Shown here piece by piece: positions 2,014 through 41,043 of a stretch of 42,863 nt of DNA. The notes under the pieces were generated by a model, which was not told the origin of the DNA, did not search any database, and saw nothing but the letters and a program-made list of their open reading frames with translations. Source of the DNA: a virus; UHGV virus genome UHGV-0096616. One strand, given 5' to 3'. How positions within the stretch are numbered: position 1 is the stretch's first letter; each line of letters starts with the position of its first letter. Both the position numbers and the translations under genes were made by a program.

Positions 2014-2496
2014 CTATCTTGTCAGGGTGTCATACTGTTTTTCGCAGACTCTTCCGGCTTCGACTGCCCGGTCAGCATACTCTGCCAGTTGTCTGTTTCT
2101 CTCGAGAGATTTGCTGAGCACGTCGGCAAGCAAAACTCCGGTGTCTGCGGCTGACGACCCAGCGCCGACAATGGCGTTATAGTGCCTGAGCTGCTCACGG
2201 ATGGCAACGAGCTGTTGCTGCAACCGGCCAGCGCGAGCGGCAGCATCAAGAGCATCATTGCGCGCCTGGTCGATCCTCTGCTGCGCTTCACGTTCATTGA
2301 TCGATTTCTCCTGTTCGTAGTGCTGACGAACTCTCTCATCTTCGGTTTTGCGGTCTTCTTTCGCCTGTGCATACCCGGCGTCGTACTGACGACTGCCGTG
2401 TGCATTCCAGGCTACAACTCCTGATATGACCAGAACAGCAAACATCGCCATGATAACCAACTGTTTCCAGTATGCTTTTGCGAATGCCCAGATCAT
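2014..2496 (-). CDS. Rz-like i-spanin (160 aa; N-terminal TM helix, coiled-coil periplasmic domain)
   Basis: Immediately downstream of endolysin with ATGA start/stop overlap; TM plus coiled coil; contains an embedded lipoprotein ORF. Confidence 0.7.
2022..2258 (-). CDS. Rz1-like o-spanin lipoprotein embedded in the +1 frame of Rz
   Basis: ORF fully inside Rz in another frame; signal peptide [13 protein letters not shown] with lipobox; start could also be the upstream Met (to 2297). Confidence 0.55.
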   Translation of the reverse strand: MMLLMLPLALAGCSNSSLPSVSSSGTITPLSALGRQPQTPEFCLPTCSANLSRETDNWQSMLTGQSKPEESAKNSMTP

Positions 2497-3420: not shown

Positions 3421-3811
3421 CGCCTTTTCTCCCAGGAATTAATTCGCGTGGATTGTCGGAACGGTGATAGAGCCATATACCAATGCGCACAGCGACAATT
3501 GCTGACACAAATGCGCCAGCAGAGAAAACAATCCCTTTTTCAAAAGAGTCCTGCGTGATAGTAGGGATCAGGCTGGCTATGCCGATAAGAATTGATGCTG
3601 CTGGTTTATAAAAAAGAAGGCCGCAGAGAAAGCTAAGCATCGACAAGAGTACACGACGACGAATGGGATACTCTACCGCAGAGGTAACAAAAATTACCGC
3701 TCCAGCCAAAGCCCCCAAAGCAACCTCAGGAGGAACTCCTGCTATCACCGCCGCCAGAGAACTCATGCTAAGCCACTGATTTAAAGTTTCACTGGTTAGT
3801 TGAGCTGACAT
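3410..3811 (-). CDS. putative holin (about 133 aa, multi-TM)
   Basis: Hydrophobic helices, charged C-terminus; first gene of the lysis cassette; start moved to ATG at 3811 with GGTGGA RBS. Confidence 0.5.
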   Translation of the reverse strand: MSAQLTSETLNQWLSMSSLAAVIAGVPPEVALGALAGAVIFVTSAVEYPIRRRVLLSMLSFLCGLLFYKPAASILIGIASLIPTITQDSFEKGIVFSAGAFVSAIVAVRIGIWLYHRSDNPRELIPGRKGDGN

Positions 3812-3956
3812 GTTTTCCACCGTTTATATGCATTACAACCTCCTAAATGGTAAGTCACAAAGCATAATAAACCATTTATGGTTTATTGTTACTTTCTTAC
3901 AGCAAAAATACTGTCATTGGTATTGGTAAAAGCCCACCCAAGGTGGTGATTTAGGG

Positions 3957-3989
3957 ATAACAGTAAAAGACCACCTCACTATGAGGTGG
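3957..3989 (-). terminator. intrinsic terminator downstream of the tail spike gene (CCACCTCA-tag-TGAGGTGG then U-rich tract on the - strand)
   Basis: Inverted repeat read from sequence. Confidence 0.45.
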
Positions 3990-4069
3990 CTGAGTTATAA
4001 ATAGATGATGTATTATCAATTTTTGGGATTCCCATCATTAATTAATGGGAAAAATTAAAATAGAATAGT

Positions 4070-6646
4070 CTATTTTAACACCCATCCTGTATTTCCTGTT
4101 CCTGTTTTCTTTTGATACCAATCACCATTATAATCAATGTACATTGACCCCTGAGGTGCGGTCACAACACCCTCAGGTGAACCGGAGCCTCTATAAATTC
4201 CAAAGAGAGTTGTACCTCTTACTTTCTCGTATGCAAACAACAAACCATCTGAAGCCCTTCTGATACGCAACGGTTCGTGCTCTGAGTCCGATGCAAATGT
4301 AGTGGTTCCGTTTGAATCTGTTTCCCTGGAAAAACTTCCATCTGTTCTTGTTCCTTCAATGATCGAATTTGGGTAGTTTGGATCATCAGATGAATGTAAC
4401 CTAATATAGGAACTATTTGATGCTGATACCCCCCTACCCCTTAAAATCAATCCCTTAAATGATGACGTAAATAGTGCCTGGATTGAGCCATAAACAGTGT
4501 TATCACTACCGTTTTGCTGATCGTATATTCTTAATCTTGAGCTATTATCATACATAATAGCTTTGAAGTACTCACCAAGACGTTCGCTAAATGCAACAAT
4601 ATTAAAAGCATTGCGCCATCTAAATGATATATTTCGCCCGCTTTCTCCGGCATCTGCACCTGCATTACTTGAAGCATTGGTTATGCCAGAATTAAGGTTC
4701 TGCTCATCGTTGTTACCAGTCGCTGGTCGTATAGAGTAAATTGTCTTTTTCTCAAGAGAATAGCTACTTCCCCATCCATAATCTATTTCAGGACTCCAGT
4801 CTCCAGAATTTGCATCCTTGGTTGTTTCTACCCAATAAGAGCCATTTGATGGAGGGACACCAATTATTCCAGAAGTCTCAATGGATGATGCAGCCCATCT
4901 TCTTCCACGCCAGTTTACAATATTAGCTCCTGCCCTCCATGTTTCTATGCAGCTTATAATTATTTCTTCACCACGAATAGTTAGACCTTCCGGCTCAAAT
5001 CTGGCTGGATTCCCAAGAGTTGGATGGTTAAGCAACCCATCGCGCCCATATTGCGACCTTGCATCATCGATATCTAATTTTCTTAGTAAATTACCTGTTA
5101 AATCATATGTAAAGATATGATGCTTTCCAAAAGCATTAGCCCCCCCCTTAAGTATATGTATATATCTTCCATCAGACGCAATACCTTGTACAGAGTAAGC
5201 GCCTTCAGAAGGTGAGTCGCTCATTTCCCAAACAAACATGGGGTTTGCTAATGTTTTATCTTCAAGTTTATCAATTGATATTTTATCGTATATAAATACA
5301 GTTCGTTTAGCGGCATCACTCTTTGGTGTATTAACCATTATTAAAAGACGACCGTCAGAAGAAATGGCAATTCCTGCACGATTGTAATCTTGAAATGGGT
5401 GACCGCTACCAGTAATCCCCCATACATTATAACTTTTTACGTCAGACTGAGTTGTTCCTGCCCCTCGCCAAGTTATTTTACTAAACCCTTTGCCTGCAGA
5501 CTCCCCATCTTCACCTGAATTGGTTACACTTGATGTATATAAATATACTTGACCATTCTCCACCATGGCAGAAATATCAAATCCGTGCCCAAGGTTTAAT
5601 TCTGGAGAATACGCAACATGGTTTACTACCCTTCCATCATCATAAAGATTAAACTCAACAATACGAACTCTTTCTTTATCTGACCAGGTTGGCCCAACAG
5701 GCCGTTGTGTGACAAATAGTTTTTCAATGCCATTAACACGGCAATATGCGATCCCCTGTAACGCATTTCTGGCATTAGGATAAATTTCTGTGTTTGTTTC
5801 TCCCTGAAAACCAAAAAAAGGTTCCATCATTTTTCTCTGCACAAGTTTGTCAGTTTCAAGTAGACGAGAAACTGAAATAAGAGATCCATTATCAGCAACA
5901 ATCCTCCCAATACCTTGAACAGAAGATACATCAACTTCGAGAGTATTTACTGCAAAATCGCCATTAGGAACAAACGCTCTGTGGCCTGCATTAGAGAACG
6001 CCTCCGTAGAATCAGTTATTCCATCTCCCTTTGCACCAAAATCGCTAACACTGACGATATCTCTCATCTTATCCTGGAACGTTCGGTATACTGCTCCAGA
6101 ACCATACTGAATAAACCAACCAAAACCACCAACAACCCCGGCGATTGCAGCATCGACATAATTACGCATTGAGCGATTATTTACAGCATCCTGCTCAAGT
6201 GATGGATCTGCAAGGTTAGAAATTCTGTTTTGCTTTGCATCGTAATATTTTGCAAGCAGAGAGGGCTTCATCAATGCACGTCTGAACCACCCAAAACATT
6301 GCTGGATCAGCATCGTCAGATAGTCAAAGGCATCCTCATGCACTTCGGGGAAAAACTTTCCCTGATTGCGAAGGTCTGTCTCCTGCACCACATCAAGCAC
6401 ACGATCTATCGTAATTCGCCAGCCAGCAGCAAGCGGCGACGGAAGAACCACAGAACCGCCACTATAAGTGCCCGCCCCAGTTACCGTATAACCGGTATCC
6501 AGAACCAATTCTGTTACGTTCCCGTTCAGGTCAGACACCTGAACAACCAGGTCGGATTTTTTGAAAATACGGAAGGTATACGGAAATGATGTCGTAACGC
6601 CGTTACCTGTGTATTCGTTGTGGTCAACTTCGGTTGAGACCGTCAT
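4070..6646 (-). CDS. Tail spike / tail fiber (858 aa): T7 gp17-like N-terminal adaptor domain plus beta-helix-like receptor-binding/depolymerase body
   Basis: N-terminal ~120 aa resemble podovirus tail-fiber adaptor domains; DFGAKGDGITD motif typical of tailspike beta-helices; visibly AT-rich; GGAG RBS. Confidence 0.75.
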   Translation of the reverse strand: MTVSTEVDHNEYTGNGVTTSFPYTFRIFKKSDLVVQVSDLNGNVTELVLDTGYTVTGAGTYSGGSVVLPSPLAAGWRITIDRVLDVVQETDLRNQGKFFPEVHEDAFDYLTMLIQQCFGWFRRALMKPSLLAKYYDAKQNRISNLADPSLEQDAVNNRSMRNYVDAAIAGVVGGFGWFIQYGSGAVYRTFQDKMRDIVSVSDFGAKGDGITDSTEAFSNAGHRAFVPNGDFAVNTLEVDVSSVQGIGRIVADNGSLISVSRLLETDKLVQRKMMEPFFGFQGETNTEIYPNARNALQGIAYCRVNGIEKLFVTQRPVGPTWSDKERVRIVEFNLYDDGRVVNHVAYSPELNLGHGFDISAMVENGQVYLYTSSVTNSGEDGESAGKGFSKITWRGAGTTQSDVKSYNVWGITGSGHPFQDYNRAGIAISSDGRLLIMVNTPKSDAAKRTVFIYDKISIDKLEDKTLANPMFVWEMSDSPSEGAYSVQGIASDGRYIHILKGGANAFGKHHIFTYDLTGNLLRKLDIDDARSQYGRDGLLNHPTLGNPARFEPEGLTIRGEEIIISCIETWRAGANIVNWRGRRWAASSIETSGIIGVPPSNGSYWVETTKDANSGDWSPEIDYGWGSSYSLEKKTIYSIRPATGNNDEQNLNSGITNASSNAGADAGESGRNISFRWRNAFNIVAFSERLGEYFKAIMYDNSSRLRIYDQQNGSDNTVYGSIQALFTSSFKGLILRGRGVSASNSSYIRLHSSDDPNYPNSIIEGTRTDGSFSRETDSNGTTTFASDSEHEPLRIRRASDGLLFAYEKVRGTTLFGIYRGSGSPEGVVTAPQGSMYIDYNGDWYQKKTGTGNTGWVLK

Positions 6647-6749
6647 GTTAAATCTCCAGATAGTCGCAGCACCCGTTGCGCCGCATATCTGGTTATTCTA
6701 TTACCCAAAAAACCACATATGGATAGAAAGACTGTAAATACGAATAGAT

Positions 6750-6766
6750 ATTACCTTTCGGGTAAT
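6750..6766. promoter_or_regulatory. palindrome ATTACCTTTCGGGTAAT (site 1 of 13), putative operator
   Basis: TTACC-N5-GGTAA dyad; between the tail spike start and the LexA-box gene. Confidence 0.5.
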
Positions 6767-6802
6767 TTGCAAAACGTGCTGGATAGCAAACAAATTATTT
6801 GA

Positions 6803-6822
6803 TACTGTATAAATATACAGTT
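6803..6822 (+). promoter_or_regulatory. LexA (SOS) box TACTGTATAAATATACAGTT
   Basis: CTGT-N8-ACAG with AT-rich spacer, 17/20 match to consensus TACTGTATATATATACAGTA as I recall it, ~20 bp upstream of the 6842 start. Confidence 0.7.
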
Positions 6823-6841
6823 ATTGCATGGAGAAGATAAG

Positions 6842-7099
6842 ATGCAGCAGTATCACTATCCACTGGAAGACGGATTTACCGAAAGGATTCACACGCCGGG
6901 AGGCGTCAGGTCACTGGTGGAGGGATCGCACTTGATGAAATTACTCCGGGATCTCGATAAGGATGGATTTAATGTCGATGGCCCACTTGCCGAACTGACT
7001 GCACTGATTAACTACGTCACCAGCTCACAGATGTCTATGCAGGATCTGCAAACACATCTCGACTATTGTGCCGAACAATTACGAAAACAAACCAGATAA
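6842..7099 (+). CDS. small SOS-controlled protein (85 aa), putative antirepressor; shares a C-terminal domain with the Bro-N protein
   Basis: ATG with GGAG RBS; LexA box upstream; C-terminal ~50 aa align by eye with the C-terminus of the 7415-8110 product. Confidence 0.45.
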   Translation: MQQYHYPLEDGFTERIHTPGGVRSLVEGSHLMKLLRDLDKDGFNVDGPLAELTALINYVTSSQMSMQDLQTHLDYCAEQLRKQTR

Positions 7100-7129
7100 G
7101 GTTTGCAATTACCAAATGGAGTGCTTATA

Positions 7130-7149: not shown

Positions 7150-7257
7150 ACATCGCACTCCTCTTGTGCCATAGTAATCGGGCACTGGCAAAATCCAGTG
7201 CCGGGATTGGCGTCCCGGATTACTAAAAGGCGCATTCACCGCGCAAGCGGTTTTTTT
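7150..7257 (+). ncRNA. candidate small RNA / attenuating leader: two stem-loops plus intrinsic terminator (ACCGC-gcaa-GCGGT then T7)
   Basis: Hairpins at 7181-7202 and 7201-7218, terminator at 7238-7257, no ORF; sits between the promoter/operator and the Bro-N gene. Confidence 0.35.
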
Positions 7258-7414
7258 ATGCGTATAGCACGGCCACATTCGTATTATGGTGGGCTGTGTG
7301 GGGGCACCGAAAGGTGCGCCGGGTCCTTTTAGCCGGTTACGCCAACCCTGCACAGCTCACCACCAACCGATTGGCGTCGGTAGTGGTGATTAACCAGACT
7401 AAAAGGTAACCACT

Positions 7415-8110
7415 ATGACAGCTACAAAAAGCACGTCCATTTTTTCTTTCGAATCCCAAGCCGATATACGAGTAATCGTCATTAATGGTGAGCCATGGTT
7501 TATCGCTTCAGATGTTTGTCGGGCTATAGGCATAGCAAACCATCGAGATGCTGTTCGAAAACTTGATGATGATGAGAAGGGCGTCGCTTCAACCGACACC
7601 CCTGGCGGTGAGCAAGAATCGATCATCATCTCCGAGTCAGGCCTCTACACACTGATCCTCCGCTGCCGCGACGCAGTGACACCAGGCACTATCCCATACC
7701 GCTTTCGTAAATGGGTTACAGGTGAGGTTCTTCCTCAGATCCGCCGCACCGGAAGTTACATTAAAAACTCGCTCCCGCAGGAAGAGCGCATAAAGATGGT
7801 TGCCGACCAGGTAGCCAACGCCACAGCATCAGCAGTGATGCAGGCGATGAAGATAGAGAACAAAACCTACAGTGCCCCACTGAAGCCCGGCTACCGCAGC
7901 CTGATTCATTCGCCGTCTGGTGTTCTCGGCCTGACGGAGAACTCACTGCTGATGAATCTGCTGAACCAGTTACAGGACGACGGGCACGACGTATCGGGCG
8001 CGGCGGCGGAGCTGACCACCATGTTCTGCTACATCGTCGGTGTGAGCAAATGCCTGCGTGATATCCAGACACACGCGGAGTACATCAACGACAAGGCTGG
8101 GTTCTTCTGA
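7415..8110 (+). CDS. Bro-N domain protein (231 aa), putative antirepressor
   Basis: N-terminal Bro-N-like domain; C-terminal domain homologous to the 6842-7099 product; RBS AAGG. Confidence 0.65.
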   Translation: MTATKSTSIFSFESQADIRVIVINGEPWFIASDVCRAIGIANHRDAVRKLDDDEKGVASTDTPGGEQESIIISESGLYTLILRCRDAVTPGTIPYRFRKWVTGEVLPQIRRTGSYIKNSLPQEERIKMVADQVANATASAVMQAMKIENKTYSAPLKPGYRSLIHSPSGVLGLTENSLLMNLLNQLQDDGHDVSGAAAELTTMFCYIVGVSKCLRDIQTHAEYINDKAGFF

Positions 8111-25822: not shown

Positions 25823-25899
25823 GTGGCATTAGCTCAGTTGGACAGACCAACCGCCTTCTAAGCGGTTGGTCGCAGGTTCGAATCCTGCATGCCACGCCA
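25823..25899 (+). tRNA. tRNA-Arg (anticodon UCU)
   Basis: Cloverleaf read by hand: acceptor stem GTGGCAT/ATGCCAC, T-arm GCAGG-TTCGAAT-CCTGC, anticodon loop CTTCTAA, 3-prime GCCA; one D-stem mismatch. Confidence 0.85.
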
Positions 25900-39792: not shown

Positions 39793-41043
39793 TTATTCCC
39801 CCGCCATCCACTTCTCAAACTTCGACGGGGAGAACGGAATCAGATCCGTATGCTCCCCGTTAATCCAGGAATCAATCATATCGGACCACTGCTGCAACAT
39901 GTAGGCGCGCTGTCTGGCGTATTCCGCTTTGTTATATACGGCGCGCACACCTTTCTGCTCATGTGCCAGAGCCTTTTCAATCCAGTCTGAAGGATAACCA
40001 GCCTCATGCAACAACGTACTGGCTGTACGGCGCATATCGTGTACGGTGAAGTCCTGAATATGCTCACCATCTTCATTTATTATTTTCACCGTTCTGTCGA
40101 TCAGAGAGTTCAGCGCGGCATTAGATAATGGCTTCCTGAAATTGTAACGACCAGGAACCAGATATTCACTTCCACCAGCGCACATCTGCAACCCGACCAA
40201 TATATCCTGAGCCTGTTTAGGCAGGTAAATAACATGCGCCCGGCTTCCCTTCATGCGGTCTGAAGGAATTGTCCATGTCCATTTTTTAAAATCTATTTCA
40301 TCCCACGTTGCATTGGTGAATTCGCCTTTACGAACCATAGTGATAAGCACCAGCTTTAAAGCCATTTTCATAGTGCCCATAGCACCAATGGCATCCAGCG
40401 TGCGGAAGAACAGACCAATTTCTTCTGGTGTCAGTGTTCGCTCTCGTGGTTTAAATATGGCGATAGACGAAGGTTTAATGTCAGCAGCAGGATTAAACAA
40501 ACCATGACCACGGTCATTGGCGTGACGGTATACGCTGCTGATGATCTCCCTGGCCTGTACTGCTGTTGCCCGACCACCGCGTTCGACAATCCGGTCACAC
40601 AAATCACGAACCATCGATGTGGTAATTTCAGCCATCATTTTGTTGCCAAGAACCGGAAGTATGTCACGGTCGATCACCGCCTGCTTCATTGCGCGGGTAC
40701 TTTCAGCCAGGATGACGTGTTTCATATAACTGTCGGTATGTACCGCAAACGTCTCGGCACCACGAATCTTTTTGATACCGTCACGTTTAGCCGCAGCCGG
40801 CGACTGGCCTGCTTTAAGCAGCTTCTTTGCAGCAATCAGTTCTTCTCGCGCTTCTGCCAGGCTGATACCGTCACGCCCATACTGCCCGATTACCAGTGTT
40901 TCGCGGCGACCGTTGATACGGTAGTCATAGCGAAACGAGACCGTACCTGACGTAAGCACAGCTACATACAGCCCGTCACGATCGGAAACTTTGTACAGTT
41001 TGTCCTGTGGCTTGAGGTTTTTTAATTTTGTATCGGTAAGCAC
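39793..41043 (-). CDS. int: tyrosine integrase, P4-like family (416 aa)
   Basis: N-terminal Arm-type domain, C-terminal catalytic domain with conserved R...H..R...Y region; adjacent to attR. Confidence 0.9.
   Translation of the reverse strand: MLTDTKLKNLKPQDKLYKVSDRDGLYVAVLTSGTVSFRYDYRINGRRETLVIGQYGRDGISLAEAREELIAAKKLLKAGQSPAAAKRDGIKKIRGAETFAVHTDSYMKHVILAESTRAMKQAVIDRDILPVLGNKMMAEITTSMVRDLCDRIVERGGRATAVQAREIISSVYRHANDRGHGLFNPAADIKPSSIAIFKPRERTLTPEEIGLFFRTLDAIGAMGTMKMALKLVLITMVRKGEFTNATWDEIDFKKWTWTIPSDRMKGSRAHVIYLPKQAQDILVGLQMCAGGSEYLVPGRYNFRKPLSNAALNSLIDRTVKIINEDGEHIQDFTVHDMRRTASTLLHEAGYPSDWIEKALAHEQKGVRAVYNKAEYARQRAYMLQQWSDMIDSWINGEHTDLIPFSPSKFEKWMAGE

Follow-up and report, generated by a model that had tools for sequence, protein, structure and literature searches.

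A Uetakevirus prophage tailspike that appears to combine a native anchor with an imported body of predicted five-bladed beta-propeller fold

The viral genome UHGV-0096616, a stretch of 42,863 nucleotides (nt) referred to here as the window, holds a complete prophage integrated between guaA and yfgI, and its sequence places it in the genus Uetakevirus, the epsilon15/phiV10-like temperate podophages. The product of the gene at positions 4070–6646 is the single receptor-binding tailspike of this prophage. We consider it about 75% probable that the native anchor of this protein holds an imported body, a five-bladed beta-propeller, that binds a polysaccharide on the host surface. Judged by alignment with both putative parents, the gene is a clean chimera between a Uetakevirus N-terminus and a body similar to that of Gally, a P22-like prophage (Lederbergvirus) of Escherichia coli LF82.

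The arrangement suggests how the protein may have arisen and how it may work. The native anchor plus linker, ~207 codons, was joined to an imported P22-like body by a crossover in the short DGITD stretch of a cap motif, which serves as a portable in-frame joint. The anchor presumably attaches three copies of the product to the tail. The central face of the propeller, with Q297, H354, Q487, E551 and E553, would bind the host surface polysaccharide and probably cleaves or modifies it, which would allow the short tail to reach the outer membrane. The cleavage or modification is the weakest step of this interpretation.

Mosaic structure of the tailspike gene

The first-pass annotation had described the open reading frame (ORF) as a tail spike, and the gene is indeed intact and located at the tailspike position of Uetakevirus genomes. 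The segments that define its mosaic structure are as follows.

4070–6646, minus strand: complete gene of the tailspike or receptor-binding protein (RBP), 858 residues, with a TAG stop codon at 4070–4072 (ORF list)
6152–6646, minus strand: genus-wide tail-attachment (anchor) domain of Uetakevirus, residues 1–165 (alignment, PHROG and Dpo31 match)
6026–6151, minus strand: linker, residues 166–207, ending in DFGAKG and common only to phiv142-3-type Uetakevirus tail fibres
6011–6025, minus strand: crossover interval, codons 208–212 (DGITD), where the BLAST blocks of both parents overlap by exactly 15 nt
4042–4069, minus strand: first 28 nt past the stop codon, Gally-like in the DNA alignment and holding one arm of an A/T-only repeat
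3893–4041, minus strand: 149-nt spacer within the imported cassette, holding a terminator-like hairpin at 3970–3990

Compared with the phiv142-3 tail fibre, residues 1–220 show 95% identity, as do residues 1–212, and residues 193–858 are 97% identical to the Gally tailspike (644 of 666 residues). At the DNA level, homology to Gally covers 4042–6025 with 98.2% identity, and homology to phiv142-3 covers 6011–7100 with 96.7% and 3600–3892 with 95.6% identity. A three-way DNA alignment reveals the switch from phiv142-3-like to Gally-like sequence at the DGITD codons. As delimited by these blocks, the imported cassette extends from codon 208 to ~180 nt past the stop codon (3893–6025), and it replaced the beta-helix body and a 100-residue ORF present in phiv142-3. 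The horizontal exchange of the receptor-binding part that had been proposed from the DNA alone is thereby borne out, with a Gally-like body lying between phiv142-3-like flanks; uniform composition together with full-length collinear homology to related tailspikes, named at the time as the contrary finding, was not observed.

When aligned to the proteins of phiv142-3, phiV10 and an epsilon15-like phage of Salmonella, the anchor is near-invariant up to residue ~165. PHROG tail families match over residues 1–162/166, and the solved tailspike Dpo31 matches residues 1–212 (E 1.7e-31). The anchor of the phiV10 RBP has been delineated as its first 205 residues (PMC10408124), with which a conservation limit near residue 165 is consistent. 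The linker is absent or diverged in the phiV10 and epsilon15-like proteins, and similarity to Salmonella epsilon15-like phages at the DNA level reaches ~116 residues only. The adaptor of ~120 residues that was first suggested is, therefore, too short, as conservation extends to residue ~165 across the genus and to residues 207–212 in the closest relatives. No match to the P22 head-binding domain PF09008 was found in the window protein with Pfam, whereas Gally contains this domain (E 7.9e-67).

The motif DFGAKGDGITD occupies residues 202–212, directly across the joint. Because the homology blocks switch at codons 208–212, DFGAKG, which is the start of the beta-helix cap motif in the phiv142-3-type parent, comes from Uetakevirus, and DGITD is the joint itself. 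The phiv142-3 body passes the PF12708 threshold (residues 198–255, 45 bits), and N-terminal PF12708 matches occur in five of 17 relatives with the propeller body. The cap motif is thus common to beta-helix bodies and to the propeller-body family, and GDGxTD looks like an in-frame junction shared by unrelated bodies. Receptor-binding domains placed behind a conserved anchor are known to be exchanged between Lederberg- and Uetakeviruses, and conserved junction motifs and terminator-containing downstream boundaries have been described as well (PMC10408124). The chimera is a well-resolved new example of this known kind of event.

The body was also noted early on as AT-rich, and its base composition agrees: codons 207–858 have a guanine-plus-cytosine (GC) content of 0.402 and a third-position GC of 0.27, against 0.47 and 0.45 for codons 1–207 and 0.488 for the whole window. 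No other 2 kb of the window is as AT-rich; in a windowed check, 1.3% of windows of equal length were as low in GC, every one of them overlapping the body region. The cassette as a whole has a GC of 0.397, compared with 0.495 for the remaining prophage. AT-richness is a weaker sign of this one transfer, however, because the beta-helix body of phiv142-3 is still more AT-rich (GC 0.361). Low GC is, therefore, not special to this exchange and seems general for tailspike body cassettes.

The 3' boundary of the cassette is rich in inverted repeats. The stretch 3971–3989 forms a perfect stem of 8 base pairs (bp; 3971–3978/3982–3989, CCACCTCA-cta-TGAGGTGG) that a terminator scan scores with 9 pairs as terminator-like, followed on the minus strand by CTTTTACTGT. 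A perfect all-A/T repeat of 10 bp (4055–4064/4069–4078, TTAAAATAGA/TCTATTTTAA) spans the TAG stop codon, and the 3' untranslated stretch has a fold more stable than 200 of 200 shuffles (z = -3.8). A further repeat lies just beyond the cassette:

3866–3887: mismatch-free inverted repeat of 10 bp, AATAAACCAT/ATGGTTTATT, directly beyond the 3' boundary in a stretch that is conserved in phiv142-3

Inverted repeats had been reported to flank the module at 3957–3989 and 4047–4066. Repeats do exist near both places, and several hairpins cluster at this boundary; both reported repeats, however, are located downstream of the gene, and so they do not bracket the module. Its 5' boundary lies inside the reading frame. 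Hairpins as recombination boundaries are ruled out on this 5' side, where none exists.

A 7-bp stem, CCACCTC/GAGGTGG, is identical after the window and Gally tailspike genes, although the loops differ. It is located 81 nt after the stop codon in the window (3971–3989) and 30 nt after it in the Gally locus (2970–2988); the window has this pattern only once, and 0 occurrences are expected by chance. This hairpin may be a conserved terminator that travels with the cassette. The spacer at 3893–4041 gave zero matches in 50,697 phage records at blastn sensitivity and matched no Rfam family, and among E. coli genomes it is confined to the five that carry the chimeric gene. Since the Gally-like DNA ends 28 nt beyond the stop codon and gives way to 149 unmatched nt, the immediate donor would be a relative of Gally and not Gally itself. 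In phiv142-3, a hypothetical ORF of 100 residues (locus 2148–2447) is found between the tail fibre and holin-like genes; it is absent from the window, which has the non-coding spacer in its stead.

Predicted fold and family of the body

The structure of residues 194–858 was predicted with AlphaFold2 (monomer) from an alignment of 17 homologues. The model has a mean predicted local distance difference test (pLDDT) value of 81.2 and a predicted template modelling (pTM) score of 0.74, and is divided into three regions.

5858–6067, minus strand: N-terminal alpha/beta cap subdomain, residues 194–263 (DSSP of the model), carrying the pectate-lyase-like N-terminal motif
4877–5845, minus strand: predicted five-bladed beta-propeller, residues ~268–590, with blades that open with Q297, H354, Q487 and E551/E553
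4073–4834, minus strand: C-terminal beta-sandwich region, residues ~605–858 (DSSP of the model), ending in a module of ~55 residues (...GSGSPEGVVTAPQGSMYIDYNGDWYQKKTGTGNTGWVLK)

A Foldseek search of the PDB revealed the RBPs of phages 80alpha, NF5, phi11 and P68 (E ~1e-11), followed in the next ranks by the phi92 endosialidase and enzymes of glycoside hydrolase family 43 (GH43). Among the predicted viral structures of BFVD, the neck appendage protein of Bacillus phage GA-1 was the best match, with E 2.5e-42 and a template modelling (TM) score of 0.61. The model is superposable on the RBPs of phi11, 80alpha and P68 as a five-bladed propeller fold, and no beta-helix appears in the top Foldseek lists of either collection. 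The body is, as predicted, composed of a cap subdomain, a five-bladed beta-propeller and a C-terminal beta-sandwich, and is not a right-handed beta-helix; the pectate-lyase fold anticipated earlier gives way to a propeller in both AlphaFold2 and Foldseek. A profile search of PDB sequences with the body family returned S74 chaperone domains of relatives only and never the propeller, implying that the body has no solved sequence relative.

A right-handed parallel beta-helix that acts as an O-antigen or capsule depolymerase and sets a single serotype would be the conventional expectation, as most characterised podophage tailspikes are beta-helices and 69% of depolymerase domains in Klebsiella prophages belong to this type (PMC12491483). 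The motif resembles the start of PF12708 (E 5e-4), and residues 185–235 can be aligned with polygalacturonase 7b8b and the Sf6 tailspike. This match, however, spans residues 198–220 and 23 of the 213 profile positions (2–24), with a score of 20.3 bits below the threshold of 27, and it lies at the junction in a motif that the Uetakevirus parent supplied for the most part. Such a beta-helix depolymerase with a single serotype is very improbable, as both the predicted fold and carriers that span O83, O102 and the S88 variant of O45 (see below) speak against it. The motif that had been taken as a sign of a beta-helix is thus present, but consists of DFGAKG from the Uetakevirus parent and DGITD from the crossover.

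The body falls in family phrog_16355, annotated in PHROGs as of unknown function (E = 0, residues 193–858 against profile positions 134–799). A HMMER scan of 1.84 billion representatives returned 113 clusters at E < 1e-30, and members of the family carry P22-type, T7-type or epsilon15-type anchors. Their C-termini consist of either a module ending in GNTGW, as in the window protein, or an S74 intramolecular chaperone; PF13884 (Peptidase_S74) is found in nine of 17 relatives and is absent from the window protein and Gally. The polar residues conserved best in a 125-member alignment are E551 at 100%, E553 and H354 at 98%, Q297 at 96% and Q487 at 92%. Each of them opens a repeated blade motif (QGIA, GHGFD, QGIA, EPEG), and by this regularity they would ring a pocket at the centre of the propeller.

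The C-terminal end of the body has matches of its own. Within residues ~803–858 (4073–4240), the last ~45–75 residues (…PEGVVTAPQGSMYIDYNGDWYQKKTGTGNTGWVLK) match stretches in unrelated, very large proteins of 1,146–3,821 residues (P0118, P0148, P0152), with up to five repeats each, and no Pfam model matched the module. This distribution suggests a widespread small C-terminal module.

Carriers, receptor and possible activity

The body is present in 44 of 5,426 complete E. coli genomes, in the P22-like form in 41 and as the Uetakevirus chimera in five. Two genomes carry both forms in separate prophages with bodies that are ~98% identical, namely CEA601S (NZ_CP166713.1, 340312–340912 and 2818431–2821007) and UID2309220007 (NZ_CM142668.1, 3224848–3225448 and 3421915–3423853). 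EC19 (NZ_CP182182.1) also has two places that match the body, yet it shows no Gally-type junction between head-binding domain and body.

The direction of transfer can be read differently, as the reverse transfer or as independent acquisition by both phages from a third donor of lower GC. The 149 nt without a match after the Gally-like part are consistent with such a donor, as are the AT-richness of the body in comparison with the Gally locus too (0.404 against 0.446) and the many different anchors borne by its relatives. Against this, the P22-like form outnumbers the chimera by far (41 genomes to five), the two forms differ by ~2% only, and the co-residence of both prophages in two genomes provides an opportunity for direct exchange. 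We regard a reversed or third-party origin as unlikely, at roughly the level of a serious minority view, and retain the transfer of a body from a Gally relative into a Uetakevirus.

Hosts were typed by their O-antigen gene clusters, with the O83 wzx-wzy genes taken from LF82. Among the chimera carriers, A0 34/86 is O83, CEA601S and EC19 have the S88-variant O45, and EC21 and UID2309220007 are O102. The P22-like form occurs in both O83 and O102 hosts, and the O102 carriers of the body comprise EC21, UID2309220007, 222, 103, 7/2, the WCHEC strains and the '405' strains; the clinical O102 strains we take to be ST405-like (sequence type 405). Carrier hosts include the Crohn's-associated LF82 and the probiotic strain A0 34/86. 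A receptor specific to O83, which LF82, NRG 857C and A0 34/86 had led us to suspect, was rejected since O45(S88) and O102 carriers exist. The O83 wzx-wzy genes are found in 35 genomes, only seven of which are among the listed body carriers. Of the 5,426 genomes, 179 are O83, O102 or O45(S88), and 26 or more of the 44 carriers are among them. Carriage of the body is thus associated with these types in a non-random way, but no one serogroup accounts for the association. Prophages that are nearly identical occur in all three O backgrounds, and the receptor is, therefore, probably available on O83, O102 and O45(S88) hosts. The view that the tailspike sets the serotype range of its host holds only in part, as hosts with at least three types of O-antigen gene cluster carry the same gene.

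Virions of Gally, which bear the body, lysogenise LF82 deleted for Gally (PMC9928086), and the body is, therefore, functional. The same paper states nothing on the receptor, and a literature search for five-bladed propeller tailspikes in Escherichia returned a match that concerned the Staphylococcus aureus phage P68.

Short-tailed phages must get through long O-antigen chains, and those tailspikes of P22-like and epsilon15-like podophages that have been characterised are enzymes. In view of this enzymatic nature and of the invariant acidic and histidine residues of the putative pocket, we lean, as a matter of judgement and by a narrow margin, to a body that would also cleave or modify the bound glycan.

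The alternative is a propeller that binds only, in the manner of phi11 Gp45, and recognises a sugar epitope common to several surface glycans of E. coli. This reading draws on the closest solved folds, which are non-enzymatic RBPs of staphylococcal phages, and on the occurrence of the body in three unrelated O-antigen backgrounds. In Klebsiella prophages, beta-propeller RBPs account for ~18% of the 'depolymerase' domains, are tied to broader host ranges and have an activity described as unclear (PMC12491483). On the other side, two Glu, one His and two Gln residues that are near-invariant in 125 relatives of 27–60% identity suggest a catalytic or metal site, and the enzymatic tailspikes and long O-antigen chains of general knowledge point the same way. 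Pure binding is, in our estimation, a serious rival but the less likely one, and we continue to prefer a polysaccharide-binding body with probable enzymatic activity. Tentatively, and at no higher estimate, the body may represent an uncharacterised enterobacterial podophage family of receptor-binding domains with a Glu/Glu/His/Gln pocket, whose fold is a distant relation of that of the teichoic-acid-binding RBPs from phages of Gram-positive hosts, and which recognises, and may also process, a receptor shared by O83, O102 and O45-S88. If so, it would be a broad-range module whose activity or receptor is unlike that of all characterised tailspikes.

Several observations weigh against our interpretation. 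A single monomer model, predicted from 17 aligned sequences, is the basis of the fold, and PF21311, the 'phage 5-bladed beta-propeller receptor-binding platform', matches residues 352–521 below threshold (16.2 against 23.7 bits, E 0.0085), with an equally weak match in Gally. The invariant residues were placed in the pocket from the repeating blade motif and not from model coordinates. The solved structures closest to the body, those of the phi11-type RBPs, belong to proteins that bind and for which no enzymatic activity is known. The carriers have at least three O-antigen types, so that the receptor cannot be assigned to any one O antigen. Finally, the end of Gally homology shortly after the stop codon, followed by the unmatched spacer, means that the true donor was not Gally itself.

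Genomic neighbourhood and comparison with known systems

The prophage has its integrase next to guaA and its lysis genes at the opposite end, adjoining yfgI/yfgH.

39793–41043: integrase, adjoining guaA
41236–42813: guaA, at one end of the window
2014–2496 and onwards to 3820: lysis cassette at the other end, with a DUF2514 gene (2014–2496), a GH19 endolysin gene and two holin genes reaching 3820

On one side of the tailspike gene lies the antirepressor/virion-structural region and on the other the holin-endolysin cassette, in the same gene order as in phiv142-3 and phiV10; its neighbours as identified by Pfam are the lysis genes, a BRO-N antirepressor, the integrase and guaA. In a DNA search with window positions 3800–6900, phiv142-3 and EC.W1-9 are among the closest phage records, and chromosomes of E. 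coli, that of CEA601S for example, match with 99.7% identity. Genes 99–100% identical to the window tailspike occupy the same position in Uetakevirus-like prophages of five E. coli genomes. In RefSeq the identical chimeric gene is named 'phage head-binding domain-containing protein' or 'phage head protein' (NZ_CP166713.1 ACAZ81_RS14280; NZ_CM169480.1). Since PF09008 is unmatched in the window protein, these labels are misleading, and they were presumably transferred from P22-like relatives via the common body.

Beside the tailspike, Rfam detects the Hfq-binding RNA isrK (7182–7257, plus strand, 77.9 bits) and a C4 antisense RNA (7282–7367, plus strand, 79.2 bits) directly upstream of the BRO-N antirepressor gene (7415–8110, plus strand). 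This block looks like a P1/P7-style immI module, in which the antirepressor is controlled by an antisense RNA. A prophage-encoded tRNA-Arg (anticodon TCT) is located at 25823–25899 on the plus strand, in the middle of a block of minus-strand genes.

Swaps of the receptor-binding domain behind a conserved anchor are the main route of host change in temperate podophages, and this locus is an unusually clean cross-genus example, with both parental lineages identifiable, a breakpoint placed within 15 nt and two dual carriers. Two corrections to the earlier view follow, one in the fold of the body and one in the meaning of the motif: because GDGxTD can be a joint between unrelated bodies, it is an unreliable marker of a beta-helix. 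Little is understood of phage beta-propeller RBPs, which have been associated with broader host ranges. The receptor of the propeller body, once known, would be useful for the design of phage therapy and for the retargeting of bacteriocins.

A comparison with known systems places the window protein between its two parents. The Gally tailspike (CAH1189517.1; phrog_16355) is collinear with it at ~97% identity over residues 208–858, but begins with a P22-type head-binding domain (PF09008, residues 1–113) where the window protein has the Uetakevirus anchor, and farther downstream the sequences of Gally and the window are unrelated. The tailspikes of phiv142-3, phiV10 (gp25) and epsilon15 (gp20) resemble it in anchor and genome position. 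The body differs from that of phiv142-3, which is of the beta-helix type and passes PF12708, and from that of the epsilon15-like protein, which is annotated as a right-handed beta-helix; phiV10, in addition, has an O-acetyltransferase gene beside its tail fibre gene.

The RBPs of phi11 (Gp45, 5efv), 80alpha (6v8i), P68 (6iab) and NF5 (9m7x) are similar to the body in fold only, with 10–15% sequence identity, Gram-positive hosts and different N-terminal stems; the phi11-type proteins bind the N-acetylglucosamine (GlcNAc) of teichoic acid. The GA-1 neck appendage protein (Q9FZW3) shares 23% identity with the body over 555 columns, with TM scores of 0.61/0.55. It ends in an S74-type chaperone (3gud), as do many relatives of the body, whereas the window protein lacks this domain, and its host and virion context differ from those of the window phage. 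The five-bladed beta-propeller glycoside hydrolases of families GH43, GH62 and GH32 have no sequence-family match in the window protein.

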